34,833 nucleotides of DNA from Woeseiaceae bacterium (lineage in GTDB: Bacteria; Pseudomonadota; Gammaproteobacteria; Steroidobacterales; Woeseiaceae): positions 1 to 34,833 of the forward strand of contig JBFEXY010000001.1 in NCBI GenBank assembly GCA_041562415.1, given 5' to 3'. Shown piece after piece: positions 6,389 to 34,833 of the stretch. Both the position numbers and the translations under genes were made by a program. The notes beneath the pieces were generated by a model. The model saw only the letters and a program-made list of their open reading frames with translations. It had not been told where the DNA came from and searched no databases. How positions within the stretch are numbered: the first letter of the stretch is position 1; each line of letters starts with the position of its first letter.

Positions 6389-7144
6389 TTGAGCATTAAC
6401 CTGGCATTGATACTCACGTTGTTGACGGCGCTGACGGGCATCGTCTACCTGCTTGACGTCTTCCTCTGGCACGACTCGAAGCGTGGTAGCGAGGAGCCGC
6501 GAGGCGGCCGGCAGACGCTGGTCGAATACTCGCGCTCTTTCTTTCCGGTGCTACTCATCGTGCTGGTTATTCGCTCGTTCATATTCGAACCGTTTCGCAT
6601 TCCTTCGGGATCGATGATGCCGACGCTGCTGCAGGGCGACTTCATTTTTGTCAAGAAATTCGCGTACGGACTGCGTCTGCCAGTCACGGAAACCAAAATC
6701 CTGGAAACCGGTTCACCGGAGCGCGGCGACGTCGTCGTTTTCCGGCTGCCGCAGGATCCGAGCATCAATTACATCAAGCGCGTAGTCGGATTGCCCGGCG
6801 ACACCGTCGTGTACGAAGATCACCGCCTGACGATCAACGGCGAGTTGGTTGAACTCGAACAGAGCCCGACTGCGAATGCCGGAGAGCCTGTCTATATCGA
6901 AAACCTGGATGGCCGCAGGCACGAGATTCTGATAACGAATGCCTACTCCGTAAGAGACGATGTCTATACAGTCCCGGAGGACCACTACTTCGTCATGGGC
7001 GATAACCGCAACAATAGCAAAGATAGCCGTTTCATCGAGGCTATACCGGAATCCTATCTCGTCGGCGAAGCGGTCCGTGTCTGGATGCATATGGACGGTC
7101 TGAGCTGGCCCCGCTGGGACAGGATCGGTACAAAGATCCAATAA
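6389..7144 (+). CDS. lepB: Signal peptidase I
   Basis: IPSGSMMPTL (catalytic Ser box), YIKRVVGLPGD (catalytic Lys box) and GDNRNNSKDSR (box E). TTG start with GAGG upstream, immediately after lepA. Confidence 0.93.
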   Translation: MSINLALILTLLTALTGIVYLLDVFLWHDSKRGSEEPRGGRQTLVEYSRSFFPVLLIVLVIRSFIFEPFRIPSGSMMPTLLQGDFIFVKKFAYGLRLPVTETKILETGSPERGDVVVFRLPQDPSINYIKRVVGLPGDTVVYEDHRLTINGELVELEQSPTANAGEPVYIENLDGRRHEILITNAYSVRDDVYTVPEDHYFVMGDNRNNSKDSRFIEAIPESYLVGEAVRVWMHMDGLSWPRWDRIGTKIQ

Positions 7145-7252
7145 TGTGGTGCCAGTCACTGATTTGGCCGCTAGAATCGCGCTAGCCTTATGTAAATCGC
7201 GTAAATGCAGCGCGACCTGTTTGTTGGACCAGAAAACGTGGAGTTTGGGTAA

Positions 7253-7268
7253 TGTGCGCCAGTTCACA
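7253..7268. promoter_or_regulatory. CRP/Vfr-like palindromic site (TGTGC-N6-TCACA)
   Basis: TGTGCGCCAGTTCACA matches TGTGA-N6-TCACA at 9 of 10 core positions. It lies ~65 nt upstream of the DUF4845 ATG, in the lepB to rnc intergenic region. Confidence 0.3.
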
Positions 7269-7332
7269 CATTAGGGGCAGAAAGGGCTTAGGGCCCGCCA
7301 ACGGCCGATCAGCACTGCGGCGTGAGGGTGGC

Positions 7333-7677
7333 ATGACCACTCTCGGCCTGGCAATTCTCGTCGCGTTCATGGGTCTGTTCGCATTCGCCGGAATTCGCCT
7401 GACACCTGTTTACCTCAATTACATGAAGGTCCTTGGCGTGATCAATGGTGTGCACGACGAATTCGACGGCACGAACCCCACGCGAAGTGCAATTCGAAGT
7501 TCCATAACGCGTCGTTTCGACGTCGAAAGCGTGGGCGAGATTACCGCACGCGATGTATCCGTGACCACCGTGGACGGCGGCTTCGAGGTTCGTGCAAAGT
7601 ACAGCCACGTGGCCCCGTTCATTTCAAACGTCTCATTCTTCGTCGAGTTTGACAAAGCGGTGCTGGTGCGGCGATAA
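7333..7677 (+). CDS. DUF4845-like small membrane-anchored protein
   Basis: An N-terminal TM (LGLAILVAFMGLFAFAGIRLTPVYLNYMKV) is followed by a small soluble domain. The position between lepB and rnc is conserved in many gammaproteobacteria. ATG 7333 is preceded by GAGGG. Confidence 0.7.
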   Translation: MTTLGLAILVAFMGLFAFAGIRLTPVYLNYMKVLGVINGVHDEFDGTNPTRSAIRSSITRRFDVESVGEITARDVSVTTVDGGFEVRAKYSHVAPFISNVSFFVEFDKAVLVRR

Positions 7678-7718
7678 CAATAAGCCGTTGAGTACGGCAG
7701 GAAACGTCGCGTCATGAG

Positions 7719-8432
7719 GTGCCGCGACGATGCAGAGCGATAATCTTGGACAACGCCGAACGCTGGCTGAGCGAAACCCTGGGTTACAGTTTCAGAGACG
7801 GCGGCCTGTTGCGGCAGGCGCTGACGCACAGGAGTGCGCCCGGCCGAAGCAACGAACGCCTGGAGTTTCTTGGCGATGCGGTACTCGATATCGTGGTTTC
7901 CGAGGCACTGTTTCACTCGCTGCCCGATGCCCCCGAGGGTGATCTGAGCCGTCTGCGCGCATCGCTTGTGCGTGACACGTCGCTGGCCGGCATTGCCGCC
8001 GATCTGGGAATCGGCGAGCACCTGGTTCTCGGCAGCGGCGAACGCAAAACAGGCGGGCACCGGCGACAGTCCATACTCGCGGATGCCCTGGAAGCCCTGT
8101 TCGGAGCCGTATACCTGGACAGCGGTTTCGATTCCGCGGCGGAATTGATTCGCCACGTATTCGCCGAGAAGCTCGATGACCTTCCTCATGCCGACGAATT
8201 GCGCGATCCGAAGACAGGCCTGCAGGAATGGTTGCAGGCGCGCGGCGCGGCGCCCCCGGACTACGAGCTCGTCAAAGTCAGCGGCAAAGCCCACCAGCAA
8301 CGCTTCGAAGTGCGCTGTCTGGTTCCGGACCAGGAGCCGGCGCCGGGCGAAGGCCGCTCCCGGCGCGGCGCCGAGCAGCAAGCTGCCCGCCGCATGCTAA
8401 TGCGGCTGACCGAGGGCGAACAGCGTGACTGA
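7719..8432 (+). CDS. rnc: Ribonuclease III; start uncertain (GTG 7719 or TTG 7746)
   Basis: LGYSFRDGGLLRQALTHRS and the NERLEFLGDAVLD signature, with a C-terminal dsRBD (DPKTGLQEWLQ...). Confidence 0.93.
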   Translation: MPRRCRAIILDNAERWLSETLGYSFRDGGLLRQALTHRSAPGRSNERLEFLGDAVLDIVVSEALFHSLPDAPEGDLSRLRASLVRDTSLAGIAADLGIGEHLVLGSGERKTGGHRRQSILADALEALFGAVYLDSGFDSAAELIRHVFAEKLDDLPHADELRDPKTGLQEWLQARGAAPPDYELVKVSGKAHQQRFEVRCLVPDQEPAPGEGRSRRGAEQQAARRMLMRLTEGEQRD

Positions 8433-9324
8433 CAAGGCATATCGTTGCGGTTTCGTCGCTGTCGTGGGCAGGCCCAACGTCGGCAAGTCGACGCTTGTCA
8501 ATGCGATGATGGGCAGGAAGGTGAGTATCGTAAGCTCGAAACCGCAGACCACCCGTCACCGGATACTCGCGGTCCTCACGGGAGACGACGAGCAAATAAT
8601 TTTTGTCGATACGCCCGGCCTGCATCGCAACGCCGGACGCGCGATGAACCGGCTCATGAACCGGACTGCAGTAAGTGCCCTGGCAGACGCCGATCTCGCG
8701 TTGTTCGTCGTTGAGGCGACACGCTGGACCGAAGAGGACGAGGATGTTCTCGAACGCATACGATCGTCAGGGGTGCCGTGTATCGCCTTGCTCAACAAGA
8801 TCGATTCGGTGCATCCGAAGAAACGCCTGCTTGCAGCTATCGATGCAATGTCCAGGCGCCATGAATTCGTCGAGATCATCCCGGTGTCCGCGCGCAAGCG
8901 GGATAACCTGGACATCCTGGCTGCCAGTATCCGTGAACGTCTGCCGGAATCGCCTCCATTGTTCCCGGCTGAAATGCAGACCGATCGCAGTCCGGAATTC
9001 CACGCTGCAGAGGTGATACGTGAAAGGCTAACGGTCCATCTTCGCGAAGAACTGCCCTACGGCCTGACAGTGCAGGTAGAACAATATTCACGGGATCGCG
9101 ACCGGCTGACCATTCACGCCGTCATCTGGGTGGAGCGCGACAGCCAGAAGGGCATCGTGGTTGGCAAGGGTGGTCTGATGCTAAAGAAGATCGGGCAGGA
9201 GGCGCGTCTTGCACTCGCCAAGCAGCTGCATCAAGCCGTGCACCTGGAACTTTGGGTCAAGGTCAAGGACAACTGGGCGGACAGCGAACAGGACCTCATT
9301 AACCTCGGCTACGAATCACCGTGA
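8425..9324 (+). CDS. era: GTPase Era
   Basis: GRPNVGKSTL (G1), DTPG (G3), NKID (G4) and a C-terminal KH domain (VERDSQKGIVVGKGG). The GTG start overlaps the rnc stop by 8 nt. Confidence 0.95.
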   Translation: MTDKAYRCGFVAVVGRPNVGKSTLVNAMMGRKVSIVSSKPQTTRHRILAVLTGDDEQIIFVDTPGLHRNAGRAMNRLMNRTAVSALADADLALFVVEATRWTEEDEDVLERIRSSGVPCIALLNKIDSVHPKKRLLAAIDAMSRRHEFVEIIPVSARKRDNLDILAASIRERLPESPPLFPAEMQTDRSPEFHAAEVIRERLTVHLREELPYGLTVQVEQYSRDRDRLTIHAVIWVERDSQKGIVVGKGGLMLKKIGQEARLALAKQLHQAVHLELWVKVKDNWADSEQDLINLGYESP

Positions 9325-19851: not shown

Positions 19852-19920
19852 ACCCGGGCGCCTGTAATGATCTCATTCAGGAGCGGGTCGGGCCCGGCTC
19901 CCGGGGGGGTGTTCGGGGGA

Positions 19921-19949
19921 AATGAAAACGCCCGGGCGGTGCCCGGGCG
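19921..19949 (-). terminator. Rho-independent terminator of the small secreted-protein gene
   Basis: Minus-strand RNA reads CGCCCGGGC-ACC-GCCCGGGCG followed by UUUUCAUUU. It starts ~27 nt after the TAG stop at 19976-19978. Confidence 0.75.
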
Positions 19950-31994: not shown

Positions 31995-32048
31995 TTGTCG
32001 ATGACATCTTGTCTAAGTATTGTCTAACAAATATTCCGACACTATACT
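31995..32048 (+). promoter_or_regulatory. Promoter of the MerR-family gene with tandem TTGTCTAA repeats overlapping the -35
   Basis: TTGTCTAA at 32009-32016 and 32020-32027 (11-bp phasing), with an extra TTGTC at 31995. TTGTCT (32020-32025), a 17-nt spacer, then TATACT (32043-32048). Confidence 0.55.
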
Positions 32049-32109: not shown

Positions 32110-33087
32110 ATGTCTGAAAATACCGCCGATACCCTGCTCTACGGCATCGGAGCCGTCGCCAAGCTCACGGGCCTTACCGACCACACTATCCGCGTCTGGG
32201 AGCGCCGCTATGCCGCGGTAGTAACCACCAGGGCGCCCAACGGCCGCCGACAGTACACGGAATCCGATGTGGAGAAGCTCGGACTGCTGAAATCCTTGAC
32301 GGACCGGGGCATTTCCATAAGCCGCATTGCGGGTGATTCCGTCGACGCACTCAAGGCCAGGGCACACAGTTTGCGGGATCTTGCGCCTGGACCGGGCCCC
32401 GATACGATCACGGTCGCACTGCTTGGCGACTTCCTGCCTCGCCAGCTAAGCGAGGAACAACACGGCAAGGCGCCGCTTGATATCCGCGTGGCCGATTCCA
32501 GCCGCGAGCGATTCAAAGCAGACCTGGGGCAACAACCGGTCGATGTCGTCGTGCTGGAAAGACCGGTTCTGGACACAGAGACCGTGGCGGAAATGCAGGA
32601 GTACCTGTCGGAAGGCAACGCCAGCCGCGGCGTCATTGTCTACTCTTTCGGACGGTCACAAGACATTGAATTTGCAAGAAAAGAAGGCATCGAAGCTGTG
32701 CGCGCGCCGATCGGCGCAGAGGAATTACACGCGGCCGCCACGCGCAGCCGACTAGAGGTCCATGGTGCGATGACCGAATCGCGGCCAGTCGAGGATGCCG
32801 CGACCGATTGGGATTTCACCGGCCCGGTTGCCGTTCGCCGCTTCAGCCCGCAACAGCTTGCAAACCTCGCGTCTGTCGAAAGCAATGTCGATTGCGAGTG
32901 TCCAAAACATCTTGCACAACTGGTTTCCGACCTGAGTGCGTTCGAGATTTACAGTGACCGGTGCGCTAACAAGGGCGACGAGGATGCTGCACTGCACCGC
33001 TACCTGCATCGGGCGACCGCCGGGGCGCGAGTACTTGTCGAGAAGGCGCTGCAGAAGCTCGCGGACGCCGAAGGGCTGAGCTTCTGA
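32110..33087 (+). CDS. MerR-family transcriptional regulator, LitR/CarH-like architecture but without a B12-binding His motif; Cys/His-rich C-terminal domain
   Basis: N-terminal MerR HTH is YGIGAVAKLTGLTDHTIRVWERRY...RRQYTESDVEKLGLLKSL. A central flavodoxin-like segment follows (ITVALLGDF..., VDVVVLERP..., RGVIVYSFG..., GIEAVRAPIGAEEL). The C-terminus is VDCECPKHLAQLVSDLSAFEIYSDRCANKGDEDAALHRYLH. AGGAG lies 6 nt before the ATG. Confidence 0.85.
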   Translation: MSENTADTLLYGIGAVAKLTGLTDHTIRVWERRYAAVVTTRAPNGRRQYTESDVEKLGLLKSLTDRGISISRIAGDSVDALKARAHSLRDLAPGPGPDTITVALLGDFLPRQLSEEQHGKAPLDIRVADSSRERFKADLGQQPVDVVVLERPVLDTETVAEMQEYLSEGNASRGVIVYSFGRSQDIEFARKEGIEAVRAPIGAEELHAAATRSRLEVHGAMTESRPVEDAATDWDFTGPVAVRRFSPQQLANLASVESNVDCECPKHLAQLVSDLSAFEIYSDRCANKGDEDAALHRYLHRATAGARVLVEKALQKLADAEGLSF

Positions 33088-33112
33088 CGGCCCGTGAAGC
33101 ACCGTGATTATG

Positions 33113-33139
33113 TTTTGTCTATAAAATAAATAGACAAAA
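33113..33139. promoter_or_regulatory. Perfect 10-bp-arm palindrome (putative operator) sharing the TTGTCTA half-site with the merR-family promoter
   Basis: TTTTGTCTAT-AAAATAA-ATAGACAAAA. It ends 2 nt before a consensus -35 TTGACA. Confidence 0.55.
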
Positions 33140-33141
33140 GG

Positions 33142-33169
33142 TTGACAATAATTTATTTCCAGGTATTCT
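33142..33169 (+). promoter_or_regulatory. Strong sigma-70-type promoter
   Basis: TTGACA (33142-33147), a 16-nt AT-rich spacer, then TATTCT (33164-33169). Confidence 0.55.
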
Positions 33170-33174
33170 GAGGT

Positions 33175-33278
33175 TTCGGTCACAGCACAAATGTGCAACC
33201 GCTTAGAGACAGTCTTCACCTCCCCCGAACCCGCTGTCTCTGCTCTAGGTGGCCGACGCTCGCGTCGGCCACTTTTTT
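33175..33278 (+). ncRNA. Candidate ~100-nt sRNA or 5' leader: hairpin with anti-SD-like loop plus intrinsic terminator (5' end predicted, not observed)
   Basis: Hairpin 33204-33212 / 33234-33242 (8 Watson-Crick pairs + 1 GU) with the loop UCUUCACCUCCCCCGAACCCG. The terminator follows at 33249-33278. No SD-led ORF fits inside. Confidence 0.45.
33249..33278 (+). terminator. Rho-independent terminator
   Basis: GTGGCCGACG-CTCG-CGTCGGCCAC (10-bp GC-rich stem, 4-nt loop) followed directly by TTTTTT. Confidence 0.85.
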
Positions 33279-33343
33279 GACCAGAGATATGGCCACGGTC
33301 CGGACCGAAACATGCGGATCGGCTTTTGGAAAGGGGAGCGCCC

Positions 33344-33424
33344 GTGGCAGGCACGCCGCCGTCGCGAGGATCAGGTGAGCAGAGTTACGTCTCCGTAGCG
33401 GCTAACTGCAGGGAGTCTCGGTGA
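33344..33424 (+). CDS. Hypothetical 26-codon upstream micro-ORF (speculative)
   Basis: GGGGAG (33333-33338), 5 nt, then GTG 33344. Peptide VAGTPPSRGSGEQSYVSVAANCRESR. Stop TGA 33422-33424 overlaps the next start (GTGATG). Confidence 0.2.
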   Translation: MAGTPPSRGSGEQSYVSVAANCRESR

Positions 33425-33567
33425 TGCTCATGTTCGGCTTCTTCATGTCTGTTCTCGCGGTGATGCTTTTCGTCGAATGGCAGTACTCGGTGATGCGTCG
33501 ACGCATACAGGTACGCTCGGAAGACCGCCCACGGTCACGATCTCTAACGCAAGAAAGGCGCTACTGA
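33424..33567 (+). CDS. Hypothetical 47-aa single-pass membrane micro-protein (below the ORF-track length cutoff)
   Basis: AGGGAG (33410-33415) lies 8 nt before ATG 33424, and GTG 33421 is also possible. Peptide MLMFGFFMSVLAVMLFVEWQYSVMRRRIQVRSEDRPRSRSLTQERRY: a hydrophobic helix followed by a basic tail. The stop lies 10 nt before the photolyase-like gene. Confidence 0.4.
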   Translation: MLMFGFFMSVLAVMLFVEWQYSVMRRRIQVRSEDRPRSRSLTQERRY

Positions 33568-33577
33568 GTCGCCAGCC

Positions 33578-34833
33578 GTGGTCGAGAAGCCATTTCGGAG
33601 GTCAAGTCGCCGGGTCGCCCTCGAGGCGCTCCACGACTTCATGCCCCGCGCCGGTGCAGACTATACGTCGCGCCGCAATTTCGACCACGGTCCAGCAAAG
33701 CACGACCACGTGTCGATGTTATCGCCATATATTCGACACCGGGTGATTCATGACGCGGAAGTACTCGACGCGACGCTCGACGTTCACGGCGCTTCCGGCG
33801 CGTCAAAATTTATCGAAGAAATTTTCTGGCGGTCCTACTTCAAAGGATGGCTTGAACAGCACCCGACCGTATGGTCCGACTACCGGGCAACAGTCAGCGG
33901 GTTGATCGAGTCGTTGGATTCGAATGGCGACCTGCGCAGTCGCTACGAGGCGGCGACCGGAGCCTCTACCGGGATAGACTGTTTCGACGCCTGGGTGTCA
34001 GAACTTGTCTCTACCGGTTACCTGCACAATCACGCGCGAATGTGGTTTGCGAGCATCTGGGTGTATACGCTTCGGCTACCCTGGCAGCTCGGTGCAGATT
34101 TCTTCTATCGACATCTCGTGGACGGAGATCCTGCAAGCAACACCTTGAGCTGGCGTTGGGTCTGCGGTCTGCACACAAAGGGCAAGACCTACCTGGCTCG
34201 GGTTTCCAACATAGTCAGCTACACGGGCGGACGCTTTGATCCCGGTGGGCAACTCGCGCACGAAGCGCCACCGCTCCGAGAGGCGCGAATACATTCGCGT
34301 CGTCCGCTTCCAGCGACAGAAAAGATTCCGGCGCGTGCATCCTTCGGATTGCTCATAACAGAAGAGAACTGCTCGCTCGAAACAGTAGAAATGGACCGGC
34401 CGCCGATCGCCGTGATGGGGGCCGTAACAACCAATTCGCGGTCGCCGTTGCCGGTTGGCTTTCCGGCACGCGAGTTCGCAATGGGAGCCGTTGCCGACGC
34501 CGTGGATCGGGCAGCGCGAAAATACGGTATCCCCGCGCAGGGCGTGCGCAGCGAAGACTGGGAAGCCGCACTGGTTGCCTGGGCACGCTCAAACGGTCTG
34601 GATACGATCGTAACGGCATATGCTCCGGTAGGGCCGGTGGCCGAACGGCTCGCACGGGCTCGGCACTCACTGGCGGGGCACGGCGTTGAATTAGTTCAGG
34701 TCATGCAAAGCTACGATACCTGTGTCTGGCCTCACGCGGCCGGGGGCTTTTTCAAACTGAAATCCCGCATCCCTGAATTGCTCCGCGAACTCGGACTCGT
34801 CGGGGCGGACGACAAATCGCGGCGCATTGCCGG
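33578..34833 (+). CDS. Photolyase/cryptochrome-family FAD-binding protein with the helical FAD domain at the N-terminus; 3' end lies outside the window
   Basis: I translated this frame codon by codon; it is open from 33548 to the window end, and because it has no stop in the window it is absent from the ORF track. Motifs: RRVALEALHDFMPRAGADYTSRRNF, MLSPYIRHR, TGIDCFDAWVSELVSTGYLHNHARMWFASIW and LVDGDPASNTLSWRWVCG, all photolyase FAD_binding_7-type. GTG 33578 is the first start after an in-frame TAA at 33545. Confidence 0.85.
   Translation, partial: MVEKPFRRSSRRVALEALHDFMPRAGADYTSRRNFDHGPAKHDHVSMLSPYIRHRVIHDAEVLDATLDVHGASGASKFIEEIFWRSYFKGWLEQHPTVWSDYRATVSGLIESLDSNGDLRSRYEAATGASTGIDCFDAWVSELVSTGYLHNHARMWFASIWVYTLRLPWQLGADFFYRHLVDGDPASNTLSWRWVCGLHTKGKTYLARVSNIVSYTGGRFDPGGQLAHEAPPLREARIHSRRPLPATEKIPARASFGLLITEENCSLETVEMDRPPIAVMGAVTTNSRSPLPVGFPAREFAMGAVADAVDRAARKYGIPAQGVRSEDWEAALVAWARSNGLDTIVTAYAPVGPVAERLARARHSLAGHGVELVQVMQSYDTCVWPHAAGGFFKLKSRIPELLRELGLVGADDKSRRIA

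Follow-up and report, generated by a model that had tools for sequence, protein, structure and literature searches.

Positions 33176–33278 of the 34,833-nt stretch of Woeseiaceae DNA analysed here (the window) are predicted to encode a conserved RNA of ~103 nt, the window's member of a new family that appears confined to Woeseiaceae-like gammaproteobacteria. The RNA most likely serves both as the terminated leader of the operon that follows it and as a small regulatory RNA (sRNA). Taken jointly, the proposal of a new family whose members are terminated leaders doubling as sRNAs, with a C-rich seed loop working, by analogy, like those of sX13 or CcsR, has in our judgement about an even chance of being correct. 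On the comparative evidence, the promoter, hairpins and terminator are real and make up one previously undescribed, structurally conserved RNA; with 49 distinct sequences carrying compensatory changes, the family is well supported and ready for Rfam submission. The Woeseiaceae (JTB255 group) are among the most abundant marine-sediment bacteria, and their post-transcriptional regulation is almost undescribed.

Conservation and covariation of the RNA family

A single copy of the RNA per locus was found in 33 genome loci and 21 metagenome loci with covariance model R1 (47–95 bits), and these 54 copies comprised 49 distinct sequences. The hosts identified in the homologue search were Woeseiaceae and other Gammaproteobacteria; Woeseia oceani did not appear among the matches. 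The metagenome scan was blind to context, its pattern having been drawn only from inside the RNA, and recovered the 21 true copies; no orphan copies appeared among its matches, in the loci or in the window, and model R1 detected no second copy in the 390 kb of loci or the 34.8-kb window. The RNA was 100–125 nt long, and each of the 33 homologues, folded singly, adopted the same three-hairpin shape despite differing stem sequences. In the window, the predicted RNA (33176–33280) folded at −43.2 kcal/mol, compared with −26.4 ± 3.5 kcal/mol for shuffled sequences (z = −4.9), and none of 200 shuffles folded as well.

In a plain MAFFT alignment, hairpin 2 of the distant clades was misaligned, and of its 10 pairs RNAalifold found only 5. 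Because of this misregistration a covariance-model alignment was adopted, which is biased towards the modelled structure, a bias offset by a control with slid partners and by the independent single-sequence folds. In this alignment of 49 sequences, 92.8% of the paired cells were complementary, compared with 34–50% when the partners were slid. Changes on both sides were observed in 12 of 19 base pairs, and the observed values were reached by 0 of 500 shuffles. Hairpin 2 had compensatory changes in 8 of its 10 pairs (89% of cells paired) together with a conserved loop, so that the covariation check suggested with the original prediction for homologous intergenic regions came out in its favour. 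For the terminator, 96.8% of cells were paired and double changes were found in 4 of 9 pairs. Since the hairpin 2 stem covaries while its sequence changes, the constraint appears to act on the RNA rather than on protein–DNA contacts. The strongest case against chance is this comparative one, conservation and covariation across the 49 distinct homologous sequences.

No Rfam 15 family reached its gathering threshold anywhere in the window (0 matches), in agreement with the original remark that it was not recognised as a known Rfam family. A sub-threshold scan of the plus strand of the window gave nothing meaningful, and permissive scans of the window and two distant homologues gave only sub-threshold matches at chance level. 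Weak matches to Xoo2, suhB and SorY were rejected for covering mainly the terminator, and a minus-strand match to RT-6 at 33106–33197 (23.5 bits; gathering score 46.7) was judged spurious, as it corresponds to the AT-rich operator palindrome described below. A literature search for Woeseiaceae sRNA, LitR-linked sRNA and PhrR found nothing relevant.

Architecture of the RNA

Promoter, hairpins and terminator were located within 1–2 nt of where they had been predicted. Hairpin 1, the 5′ hairpin (33177–33201, plus strand), consisted in the single-sequence fold of an outer helix (33177–33180 with 33198–33201) and an inner GCAC/GUGC helix (33185–33188 with 33193–33196) closed by a tetraloop. It was predicted independently in all 33 homologues. 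Its loop is often of the GNRA or UUCG type in the window's clade and C/U-rich in deeper clades; CCCC occurred in the 5′ region containing this hairpin in only 9 of 49 sequences.

Hairpin 2 (33204–33242, plus strand; 39 nt in all) has a 10-bp stem and a 19-nt apical loop. Its arms at 33205–33212 and 33234–33241 form 8 perfect pairs, or 10 counting terminal G-U pairs, and the loop reads UCUUCACCUCCCCCGAACCCG, with a conserved core, UCCCCCGA, at 33221–33228 and a C5 run at 33222–33226. The C-run was the most conserved element outside the terminator: CCCC was present in the loop of 49/49 sequences, CCCCC in 46/49 and CCCCCGA in 38/49, the family-wide core being CCCC(C)GA. The C-rich loop hairpin of the original prediction is thus functionally constrained. 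Of the 33 single-sequence folds, 31 had a run of at least four Cs in the innermost loop, and roughly half of those 31 also had a short extra helix predicted within the 19–21-nt loop; the C-run was unpaired in the single-sequence folds, also with 40–60 nt of downstream mRNA added. The heptamer CACCUCC, which had first drawn attention to the loop by its identity to the 16S anti-Shine-Dalgarno (SD) sequence, is present at 33217–33223, but it is a feature of one clade (22 of 49 sequences) rather than the family core. CUCC or CCUCC was found in the loop of 35 of 49 sequences, and CCUCC was absent altogether from clades with the loop GUUCCCCCGACU.

The single-stranded linker from hairpin 2 to the terminator (33243–33248, plus strand) is U-rich across the family (~50% U, mean length 6.8 nt, 49 sequences); a U-rich stretch before the terminator is common to many sRNA 3′ modules. 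The intrinsic terminator, GUGGCCGACG-CUCG-CGUCGGCCAC plus U6 (33249–33278, plus strand), was identified by its fold and covariation. Its arms (33249–33259 and 33262–33272) are 100% complementary and its U6 tract occupies 33273–33278. Across the family a 10–12-bp all-GC stem is followed by U5–8, with at least 5 U in the 8 nt after the stem in 43 of 49 sequences, and termination at such a stem and U-tract should be efficient. The stem core GCCGGC is invariant (49/49), which exceeds the needs of termination and hints at an unrecognised constraint. A simple terminator scanner with a loop rule of 3–8 nt did not list the window's terminator, likely because the maximal stem leaves a 2-nt loop.

Promoter, operator and the regulator gene upstream

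The motif scan identified a sigma-70-type promoter (33142–33169, plus strand) with a −35 hexamer TTGACA at 33142–33147, a 16-nt spacer and a −10 hexamer TATTCT at 33164–33169, matching 10 of 12 consensus positions, from which we infer a transcription start near 33176. A 2.8-kb promoter scan gave 2 promoter-like sites against 0.9 ± 0.9 expected. All 33 genome loci had TTGACA, and nearly all kept the 16-nt spacer together with a −10 of the form TAnnnT. Abutting the −35 hexamer is a palindrome, TTTTGTCTAT-N7-ATAGACAAAA (33113–33139, no strand assigned), which occurs once in the window against 0 expected and has the core TGTCTA-N9-TAGACA at 33116–33136. With one mismatch allowed per half-site, the distance from the start of this core to the −35 was exactly 26 bp in all but one of the 33 loci, the exception (L027) being more degenerate, and promoter and operator aligned gap-free in the 33 loci as TGTCTA-N9-TAGACA-N5-TTGACA-16-TAnnnT. 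The operator TAGACA and the −35 TTGACA are 11 bp apart; the conserved putative operator is thus made of TnnACA repeats and includes the −35 hexamer itself as one of them. CarH binds tandem 11-bp TnnACA direct repeats that include the −35 (PMC9304148).

Every RNA copy was located just downstream of a MerR regulator gene with a CarH-like DNA-binding domain, the end of which lay 84–95 nt upstream of the RNA in all 21 metagenome copies. In the window, this gene (32110–33087, plus strand) encodes a 325-aa MerR-family regulator (Pfam MerR_1), and its AlphaFold2 model (pLDDT 71) comprised a CarH/LitR-like HTH, a receiver-like (or Rossmann-like) alpha/beta domain and, at the C-terminal end, a helical domain with conserved CxC..H..C residues. 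The best NCBIfam match was CarH (E 2.5e-9, HTH only), a PDB profile search placed 5c8d and 3whp on top, again for the HTH only, and the top Foldseek matches were Thermus CarH 5c8f, 5c8e and 5c8d (E ~1e-6, TM ~0.2). Neither a Pfam B12-binding match nor an obvious B12-binding histidine motif was found in the regulator, for which 744 homologues were retrieved. Its gene has a promoter (32010–32048, plus strand) in which tandem TGTCTA repeats (TAGACA on the other strand; 32010–32015 and 32021–32026, 11 bp apart) lie over a TTGTCT −35, followed by 17 nt and a −10 TATACT at 32043–32048, and related loci conserve this arrangement ahead of their regulator genes. No terminator of the regulator gene's own was found before that of the RNA, and the regulator transcripts probably end at the RNA's terminator as well.

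Synteny and the downstream operon

The RNA had originally been proposed to be an orphan; it instead belongs to a strictly syntenic Woeseiaceae family, all 54 copies of which lie at the same position. An operon encoding HiPIP, a 47-aa membrane protein and a photolyase-like protein follows in every locus extending far enough, and the first downstream gene varies by locus (HiPIP, 47-aa gene, photolyase-like gene or true photolyase), each carrying an ordinary SD. The distance from the U-tract to the first start codon had a median of 20 nt and was at most 30 nt (12–30 nt) in 36 of 49 loci; in loci without the HiPIP or 47-aa gene, the next gene began 12–15 nt after the terminator. Such a short gap leaves no room for a promoter, so the operon can be transcribed only by read-through of the terminator, and its start 12–30 nt after the U-tract in most loci is direct evidence for a leader role. 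One-copy synteny at a fixed position would be expected equally of an element acting purely in cis and of one with both functions.

In the window, the terminator and the next ORF are 145 nt apart, an interval that represents a gene remnant: alignment with HiPIP-less and HiPIP-containing relatives identified a decayed HiPIP gene at 33281–33420 (plus strand), HiPIP itself having been recognised by Pfam PF01355 in locus L001. The 2.8-kb promoter scan found no promoter-like site at 33279–33420. The remnant holds GGGGAG (33333–33338) and the micro-ORF at 33344, neither of them conserved, and an otherwise identical strain-level contig diverges in this region, which speaks against the original suggestion that these two were regulated sites. 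The first intact cistron after the RNA encodes a conserved 47-aa single-pass membrane protein (33424–33567, plus strand), detected by tblastn in many loci and called as a gene in public assemblies, with no Pfam or NCBIfam match. It is followed by the gene for a photolyase-related protein (33578–34833, plus strand; ~419 aa, running off the window end) that has a FAD_binding_7 domain at its N-terminal end, without the usual photolyase N-terminal domain; its start at 33578 matches public gene calls.

The locus has the anatomy of an attenuator, a GC-rich hairpin and U-tract between promoter and first cistron. No conserved alternative (antiterminator) pairing was found across the homologues, hairpin 2 and the terminator persisting in every fold, and no candidate gene for an RNA-binding antiterminator travels with the locus. 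By inspection, no conserved −10-like element that could bypass termination was seen in the linker or terminator. An antiterminator candidate, a 5-nt pairing of loop CACCU with AGGUG before the terminator, was likewise found by inspection not to be conserved in relatives. A 29-aa ORF (33191–33280) was rejected as a leader peptide, as it lacks a start codon in relatives such as L001 and is not conserved. Of the original alternatives of an sRNA or a leader, a discrete promoter-to-terminator RNA is borne out and the leader anatomy is directly visible, but no antiterminator or leader peptide goes with it; the trans-acting sRNA and leader roles both remain live.

Possible pairing partners of the loop

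Pairing of the loop was predicted to average −9.5 kcal/mol with a locus's own downstream ribosome site, −9.4 kcal/mol with those of other loci and −9.1 kcal/mol with shuffled sites. The two SD sequences singled out by the original prediction as complementary to the loop, GGGGAG (33333–33338) and GGGAG (33411–33415), are both present, but these energies give no support to a specific pairing with them. No conserved complement of the loop was found within −1.5 to +3 kb in any locus, nor was there consistent pairing with the regulator gene's own ribosome site. Predicted targets inside the window were at chance level; the best non-self target, 19901–19930 (UUCGGGGGA), was rejected, as such a 9-mer match is expected ~3 times by chance. 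This site is flanked by two minus-strand genes and closely follows a terminator.

Proposed mechanism and alternatives

We propose that the RNA is made from a strong sigma-70-type promoter whose −35 is one TnnACA operator unit. The protein most likely to bind this operator is the CarH/LitR-like MerR repressor, whose gene immediately precedes the RNA, and the promoter is therefore probably on under light or photo-oxidative stress; light control is suggested, by analogy, by the CarH-like regulator and the photolyase-family cargo. Most transcripts would stop at the GC-rich terminator and yield a stable three-hairpin sRNA, hairpin 2 of which would present the C-rich apical loop (UCCCCCGA; CACCUCCCCCGA in the window's clade). 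A minority would pass the terminator and become operon mRNA, the terminator setting the ratio of sRNA to mRNA, and since read-through is the operon's only route to transcription, the RNA would also be the operon's 5′ leader. The released sRNA most likely acts in trans, pairing its loop with G-rich or SD regions of mRNAs encoded elsewhere, which would repress translation as with sX13, CcsR and RsaE. Such a design would be compact, one promoter giving abundant sRNA together with a little photolyase-family mRNA by terminator leakage. To our knowledge, this would be the first case of a CarH/LitR-type, presumably light-controlled promoter with a small structured RNA as its primary product; we know of no report of a LitR/CarH regulon whose first product is an sRNA or a terminated leader, and a literature search found none starting in this way.

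The element might instead be a purely cis-acting regulated attenuator, in which a protein or G-rich RNA recognises the C-rich loop or the invariant terminator stem and adds a second signal to the CarH-like repressor, the short terminated RNA being a by-product without trans function. The absolute single-copy synteny (54/54), the first start codon of the operon 12–30 nt past the U-tract and the conservation of loop and terminator core beyond structural need would all fit such an arrangement, and a terminator of this strength implies that some means of passing it is needed. We nevertheless regard it as unlikely: there is no conserved, mutually exclusive antiterminator, as hairpin 2 and terminator do not overlap, no candidate antiterminator-protein gene accompanies the locus, and we know of no bacterial attenuation system that reads a poly-C apical loop. 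Decidedly unlikely, too, is a locus of two signals that founds a new class of factor-dependent attenuator while releasing the same transcript as a trans-acting regulator. If so, a protein or G-rich RNA would read the poly-C loop and/or the GCCGGC stem and gate polymerase, with light acting at the promoter through the CarH-like repressor and a second signal, such as redox state or DNA damage, acting at the terminator. The loop could also pair in cis, within read-through transcripts, with the SD of the next cistron and mask it. CUCC or CCUCC in 35 of 49 loops is consistent with such masking, as is the complementarity of the window's CUCCCC to GGGAG (33411–33415) just before the 47-aa ORF, and the contact would be a pseudoknot, beyond what folding tools can model. 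The equal predicted energies for own, other and shuffled sites, the differing first downstream genes, each with an ordinary SD, the clades with GUUCCCCCGACU loops that lack CCUCC and the location of GGGGAG (33333) in a non-conserved pseudogene remnant make this improbable.

The self-complete layout of the RNA (strong promoter, structured body, U-rich linker, strong terminator) and the 145 nt between terminator and next ORF in the window would also suit a trans-acting sRNA gene that is independent of the operon and simply precedes it, the operon having its own promoter. We assign this reading a low probability, as those 145 nt are a gene remnant with no promoter-like site at 33279–33420, a gap of 12–30 nt in 36 of 49 loci fits an SD and not a promoter, and no RNA copy was found away from the locus. 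Because the leader is conserved and structured and its terminator immediately precedes a flavoprotein operon, a riboswitch or other ligand-sensing leader also comes to mind, for example one for a flavin or the antenna cofactor of the photolyase-like protein. This is very improbable given the lack of an Rfam match and the layout of three independent hairpins, with no junction, conserved internal loops or competing antiterminator and with the poly-C run of the apical loop as the sole conserved unpaired nucleotides. Least credible is a non-functional RNA, that is, the terminator of the regulator gene combined with a DNA palindrome and a chance promoter-like site: although the regulator gene lacks its own terminator and its transcripts probably end here, hairpin 2 keeps its pairing through covarying changes in the stem, its loop sequence is conserved, TTGACA is invariant and promoter spacing is kept in nearly all 33 loci.

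Comparison with known systems

As a dual-function leader and sRNA, the Woeseiaceae RNA invites comparison with several known RNAs. The analogy to CcsR drawn at the outset is fair, and the resemblance to sX13 of Xanthomonas is at least as close. sX13 of Xanthomonadaceae (RF02232; Schmidtke et al. 2013, PMC3771888) is ~115 nt long with three stable stem-loops, like the Woeseiaceae RNA, and its C-rich apical loops have G-rich targets at or near ribosome sites; it represses mRNAs with such motifs and does so independently of Hfq. Both RNAs have runs of 4–5 Cs in apical loops, which in sX13 act as seeds, and both belong to a GC-rich gammaproteobacterial lineage. The sX13 model gave full-length matches below its gathering score of 50 to L013 (21.0 bits, E 0.025) and L009 (11.3 bits), and none to the window's copy at E ≤ 10. 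However, the 4C/5C motif is found in all three loops of sX13, whereas the terminator loop of the Woeseiaceae RNA is generally not C-rich and in the window's clade a single loop carries the C-run. sX13 is a free-standing gene in a 437-bp intergenic region by polA; the Woeseiaceae RNA in contrast lies between a CarH-like regulator gene and the operon it leads, and no polA-sized ORF was found near it in the window.

The CcsR/cuckoo RNAs of Alphaproteobacteria are built of 24–50-nt hairpin modules with 9–27-nt loops and a C/U-rich anti-SD motif, and are induced by stress, photo-oxidative stress included; a conserved neighbour gene supplies the UTR from which they are made, the 3′ UTR in Rhodobacter and the 5′ UTR in Sinorhizobium, so that they are UTR-embedded sRNAs (PMC8034643, PMC4615179). 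Hairpin 2, with 39 nt and a 19–21-nt loop, falls within the cuckoo size range for hairpin and loop (PMC4615179). The cuckoo family has CCUCCUCCC in each of 2–4 adjacent hairpins, whereas the motif of the Woeseiaceae RNA is CCCC(C)GA, with CACCUCCCCCGA in the window's loop; of 49 sequences, one had CCUCCUCCC in the hairpin 2 loop and none had it in the 5′ region containing hairpin 1. The Woeseiaceae RNA also differs in having one C-rich module rather than 2–4, one copy rather than tandem paralogues, a MerR/CarH-like regulator as neighbour rather than a DUF1127 protein (CIN1), and a gammaproteobacterial lineage. No Rfam match to ar14 or related models was obtained for the window and two distant homologues. 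The Woeseiaceae RNA is not a member of sX13, CcsR or any Rfam family.

In rnTrpL (Sinorhizobium) and SreA/SreB (Listeria), a prematurely terminated leader is released and can act in trans, while read-through expresses the operon. These leaders sense through a leader peptide or riboswitch with alternative structures, none of which is detectable in the Woeseiaceae RNA. In RsaE/RoxS, S. aureus RNAIII and other Firmicutes UCCC-loop sRNAs, C-rich apical loops pair with the SD and block translation initiation. RsaE/RoxS and RNAIII have no sequence relationship to the Woeseiaceae RNA, belong to another phylum with other regulators and are not operon leaders. Firmicutes UCCC-loop sRNAs are also discussed in PMC3771888 and PMC4615179. 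Pairing of a C-rich loop with G-rich ribosome sites, a theme of sX13, CcsR and RsaE, would by the proposed mechanism extend to a further lineage.

CarH/LitR light-inducible promoters (PMC9304148, PMC9758184) resemble the Woeseiaceae locus in the MerR-type repressor with a CarH-like HTH, in the TnnACA units 11 bp apart of which one is the −35 (here a putative operator with fixed spacing in 32 of 33 loci), in the autoregulation of the regulator gene, indicated here by the repeats at its own −35, and in the photolyase-family cargo. The Woeseiaceae half-site TGTCTA/TAGACA with its N9 palindrome differs from the Pseudomonas class II consensus TGTACA-N12-TGTACA, and the sensor part of the regulator differs in not being a recognisable B12-binding module at the sequence level. 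Next to the RNA, the locus also points to a regulator family of more than 700 members whose sensor domain is uncharacterised.

A conserved structured RNA between regulator and operon

Every element listed in the original prediction was found on reading positions 32400–34833. The promoter on the + strand (TTGACA, 33142–33147; 16-nt spacer; TATTCT, 33164–33169) matched 10 of 12 consensus positions in a promoter scan. The predicted RNA (33176–33280) folded into three + strand hairpins (–43.2 kcal/mol; z = –4.9 relative to dinucleotide shuffles): hairpin 1 (33177–33201), hairpin 2 with the loop UCUUCACCUCCCCCGAACCCG (33204–33242), and, 3' of a U-rich linker, a terminator (33249–33272) followed by U6. 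Hairpin 1 of the window's clade is plain (4–6 bp, often with a GNRA or UUCG tetraloop) and looks like a 5' stabiliser. The RNA had not been recognised as an Rfam family, and an Rfam search of the window likewise gave nothing alike.

Close homologues of the MerR-family regulator encoded upstream of the RNA numbered 744, and a scan with one genome per species yielded 39 loci, almost all from Woeseiaceae genome bins. In 33 of the 39, the regulator stop codon is followed by the operator, TTGACA, a –10 element, two hairpins, and the GGCCGGCG terminator with its U-tract. When these RNAs were folded singly, the same three-hairpin shape was obtained for all 33 despite differing stem sequences (hairpin 2 stems, for example, of AGAGACAG/CUGUCUCU, GCAGAGAAC/GUUCUCUGC, CAAAGGG/CCCUUUG and CAGCGGC/GCCGCUG). 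With hairpin 2 and the terminator as its basis, a covariance model detected a single copy per genome locus (47–92 bits); it found no further copies in the loci or the window, its other matches being minus-strand hits to the palindromic terminator. Metagenomes were scanned blind to context with a pattern taken from inside the RNA alone (TCCCCCGA, gap, TCTCTG, gap, GGCCGGCG), and 21 of the 69 matches were true by the covariance model (58–95 bits). In all 21 copies a regulator homologue ends 84–95 nt upstream of the RNA, and the operon lies downstream in every metagenome locus that reaches far enough. No free-standing or second copy was present among the metagenome hits, the loci or the window.

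The covariation analysis called for in the original prediction was run on a model-based alignment of 54 copies (49 distinct sequences), and also in a 33-sequence version. Standard pairs occupied 92.8% of the alignment cells, compared with 34–50% when the 3' partners were slid by 1–3 columns, both sides had changed in a compensatory manner in 12 of 19 pairs (hairpin 2, 8/10; terminator, 4/9), and none of 500 shuffles reached the observed covariation values; these figures are inflated by the fitting of the alignment to the structure, of which the single-sequence folds are independent. We have little doubt that the RNA is real, conserved and structured, and it is a new family.

Conservation outside the terminator is highest in the C-run of the hairpin 2 loop and the GA that follows it (CCCC, 49/49; CCCCC, 46/49; CCCCCGA, 38/49; UCCCCCGA, 34/49). 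The original prediction had pointed out CACCUCC in the loop, the heptamer of the 16S anti-Shine–Dalgarno (SD) sequence; it occurs in just 22 of the 49 sequences, all from the window's clade. Where the hairpin 2 loop lacks CUCC (reading GUUCCCCCGACU), UCUCCU or UUCCCC is usually found in the hairpin 1 loop instead. A motif of the CUCC or UCCU type is present in 44 of 49 sequences, either in the hairpin 2 loop or in the 5' portion that includes hairpin 1. Within the terminator stem, the core GCCGGC/GCCGGC (33249–33272 in the window) is invariant (49/49), while the hairpin 2 stem covaries freely; this is a tighter constraint on sequence than termination ought to require.

The RNA as a probable operon leader

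The operon set downstream comprises genes for a Tat-exported HiPIP (PF01355), a 47-aa membrane protein, a 419-aa photolyase-like protein, a glutathione peroxidase and an Fpg/Nei glycosylase. In one locus (L036) the first operon gene encodes a canonical photolyase. The last two genes of the set lie at 7071–8576 of locus L001 and at equivalent positions elsewhere, followed in several loci by a cytochrome c'-like gene; with the periplasmic HiPIP, these genes make up a photo-oxidative damage cluster. In the window, 141 nt downstream of the RNA hold no conserved gene; next is the ORF for the 47-aa protein (33424–33567), a conserved single-pass membrane protein (MLMF..VMLFVEWQYSVMRRR...) that could be assigned to no family. 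This ORF stops 10 nt ahead of the GTG start (33578) of the photolyase-related gene, which runs off the window end (34833); public gene calls on identical contigs give the same coordinates for both. A domain search of the 419-aa product detected an FAD-binding domain only. This helical domain comes first, residues 11–225 aligning to photolyase 205–414; the customary N-terminal alpha/beta domain is missing, and ~190 residues of no recognised type make up the C-terminal part. Such a domain arrangement is unusual and may be that of a truncated or permuted cryptochrome/photolyase.

First start codons lie a median of 20 nt beyond the end of the U-tract, and in 36 of 49 loci this spacing is ≤30 nt; in loci without the HiPIP and 47-aa genes, the photolyase-like start lies 12–15 nt past the U-tract. 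A gap of 12–30 nt accommodates an SD sequence and not a promoter, and the anatomy therefore argues strongly that the operon is transcribed from the RNA's own promoter by read-through of the terminator. The RNA is thus very likely an operon 5' leader with obligatory read-through.

The window, with a gap of 145 nt, is one of the exceptions. Alignment identified 33281–33420 as the remnant of a HiPIP gene, intact in most relatives, after deletion and decay; in four loci (L002, L042, L072 and L086) the HiPIP SD, ATG and first codons are kept, fused to the HiPIP 3' end. Two proposed targets of the RNA, GGGGAG (33333–33338) and a micro-ORF at 33344, fall inside this remnant and are not conserved. A strain-level contig (L116, Logan SRR36271513) matches the window exactly through the RNA and for ~25 nt beyond the terminator, after which 37 of ~120 positions differ (equivalent to window 33304–33424; ~220 nt past the regulator stop, from locus position ~2145 onwards). 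This divergence at the remnant edge may mark either a recombination breakpoint or a chimeric assembly.

The regulator and its probable control of the promoter

The regulator (325 aa, 32110–33087), identified by domain search, has an HTH nearest to CarH/LitR in a profile search; no Pfam domain beyond the HTH and no B12-binding domain was detectable by sequence. Its AlphaFold2 model (pLDDT 71) has the HTH, a receiver-like alpha/beta domain (~residues 100–212) and, C-terminally, a helical domain; in Foldseek, Thermus CarH was the best match over the full length (E ~ 1e-6, TM just ~0.2). C262, C264, H267 and C285 are invariant. The protein may represent an uncharacterised LitR/CarH class of >700 homologues with unknown sensing chemistry.

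A perfect palindrome, TTTTGTCTAT-N7-ATAGACAAAA (33113–33139), abuts the –35 of the RNA promoter. Around this promoter 104 nt align without gaps over 33 loci, with the consensus G.TACA (–46), GTTACA (–36), TGTCTA (–26), N9, TAGACA (–11), N5, TTGACA (0), 16 nt, TAnnnT; TAGACA and the –35 TTGACA both fit TnnACA, at a spacing of 11 bp. CarH repressor operators consist of tandem 11-bp TnnACA repeats including the –35 (PMC9304148), and class II LitR operators of TGTACA-N12-TGTACA overlapping the –35 (PMC9758184). We infer that the RNA promoter is probably under the CarH-like regulator; light or photo-oxidative control would be plausible. The regulator's own promoter (32010–32048) has two TGTCTA 11 bp apart (32010–32026) over a TTGTCT –35, then a TATACT –10. 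This layout, kept in relatives, suggests autoregulation via an operator motif common to both promoters.

Regulator homologues outside the family, in the non-Woeseiaceae loci L026 (Lysobacterales) and L032, occur without the RNA, and the promoter-RNA-terminator unit therefore has the look of an insertion, specific to one lineage, into a more ancient pairing of regulator and photolyase-like genes. In L026 these two genes abut directly, leaving no intergenic region; in L032 the regulator sits elsewhere.

Action in cis or in trans

As a leader, the RNA might control the operon by regulated read-through or by masking of the downstream SD by the loop. Single-sequence folds and models of the read-through transcript gave no alternative pairing that competes with the terminator, and no conserved leader peptide was found; active regulation of read-through seems unlikely. 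Masking in cis had been one reading of the CACCUCC loop. Pairing of the loop with its own downstream ribosome site showed no advantage over pairing with foreign or shuffled ones, and the loop stayed unpaired in the read-through models; this reading is weakened, and only weakened, since such models cannot represent loop-to-SD pseudoknots. Nor does a conserved complement of the hairpin 2 loop occur within several kb of the locus. An exposed, conserved poly-C seed on a stable hairpin, followed by a U-rich linker and a strong terminator, is how sRNAs with C-rich seed loops are built. The chances are about even that the terminated product acts in trans via its C-loop.

Among analogues with experimental characterisation, sX13 has three stem-loops with 4C/5C in the apical loops, and its G-rich targets lie at ribosome sites (PMC3771888); the CcsR/cuckoo RNAs have anti-SD loops and form part of the 5' or 3' UTR of a constant neighbouring gene (PMC8034643, PMC4615179). 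The sX13 model gave full-length, far sub-threshold matches to distant members of the new RNA family, a likeness that could reflect remote homology or convergence. By membership criteria, assignment to either family was rejected.

One candidate loop target in the window, 19901–19933, carries on the + strand a perfect 9-nt complement (UUCGGGGGA) and was rejected as chance-level. The – strand of this segment is loop-like and C-rich, a weak covariance-model match (E = 0.055). The segment is flanked by mfd and a gene for a 91-aa lipoprotein-like product (both on the – strand) and comes just after the terminator of the latter.
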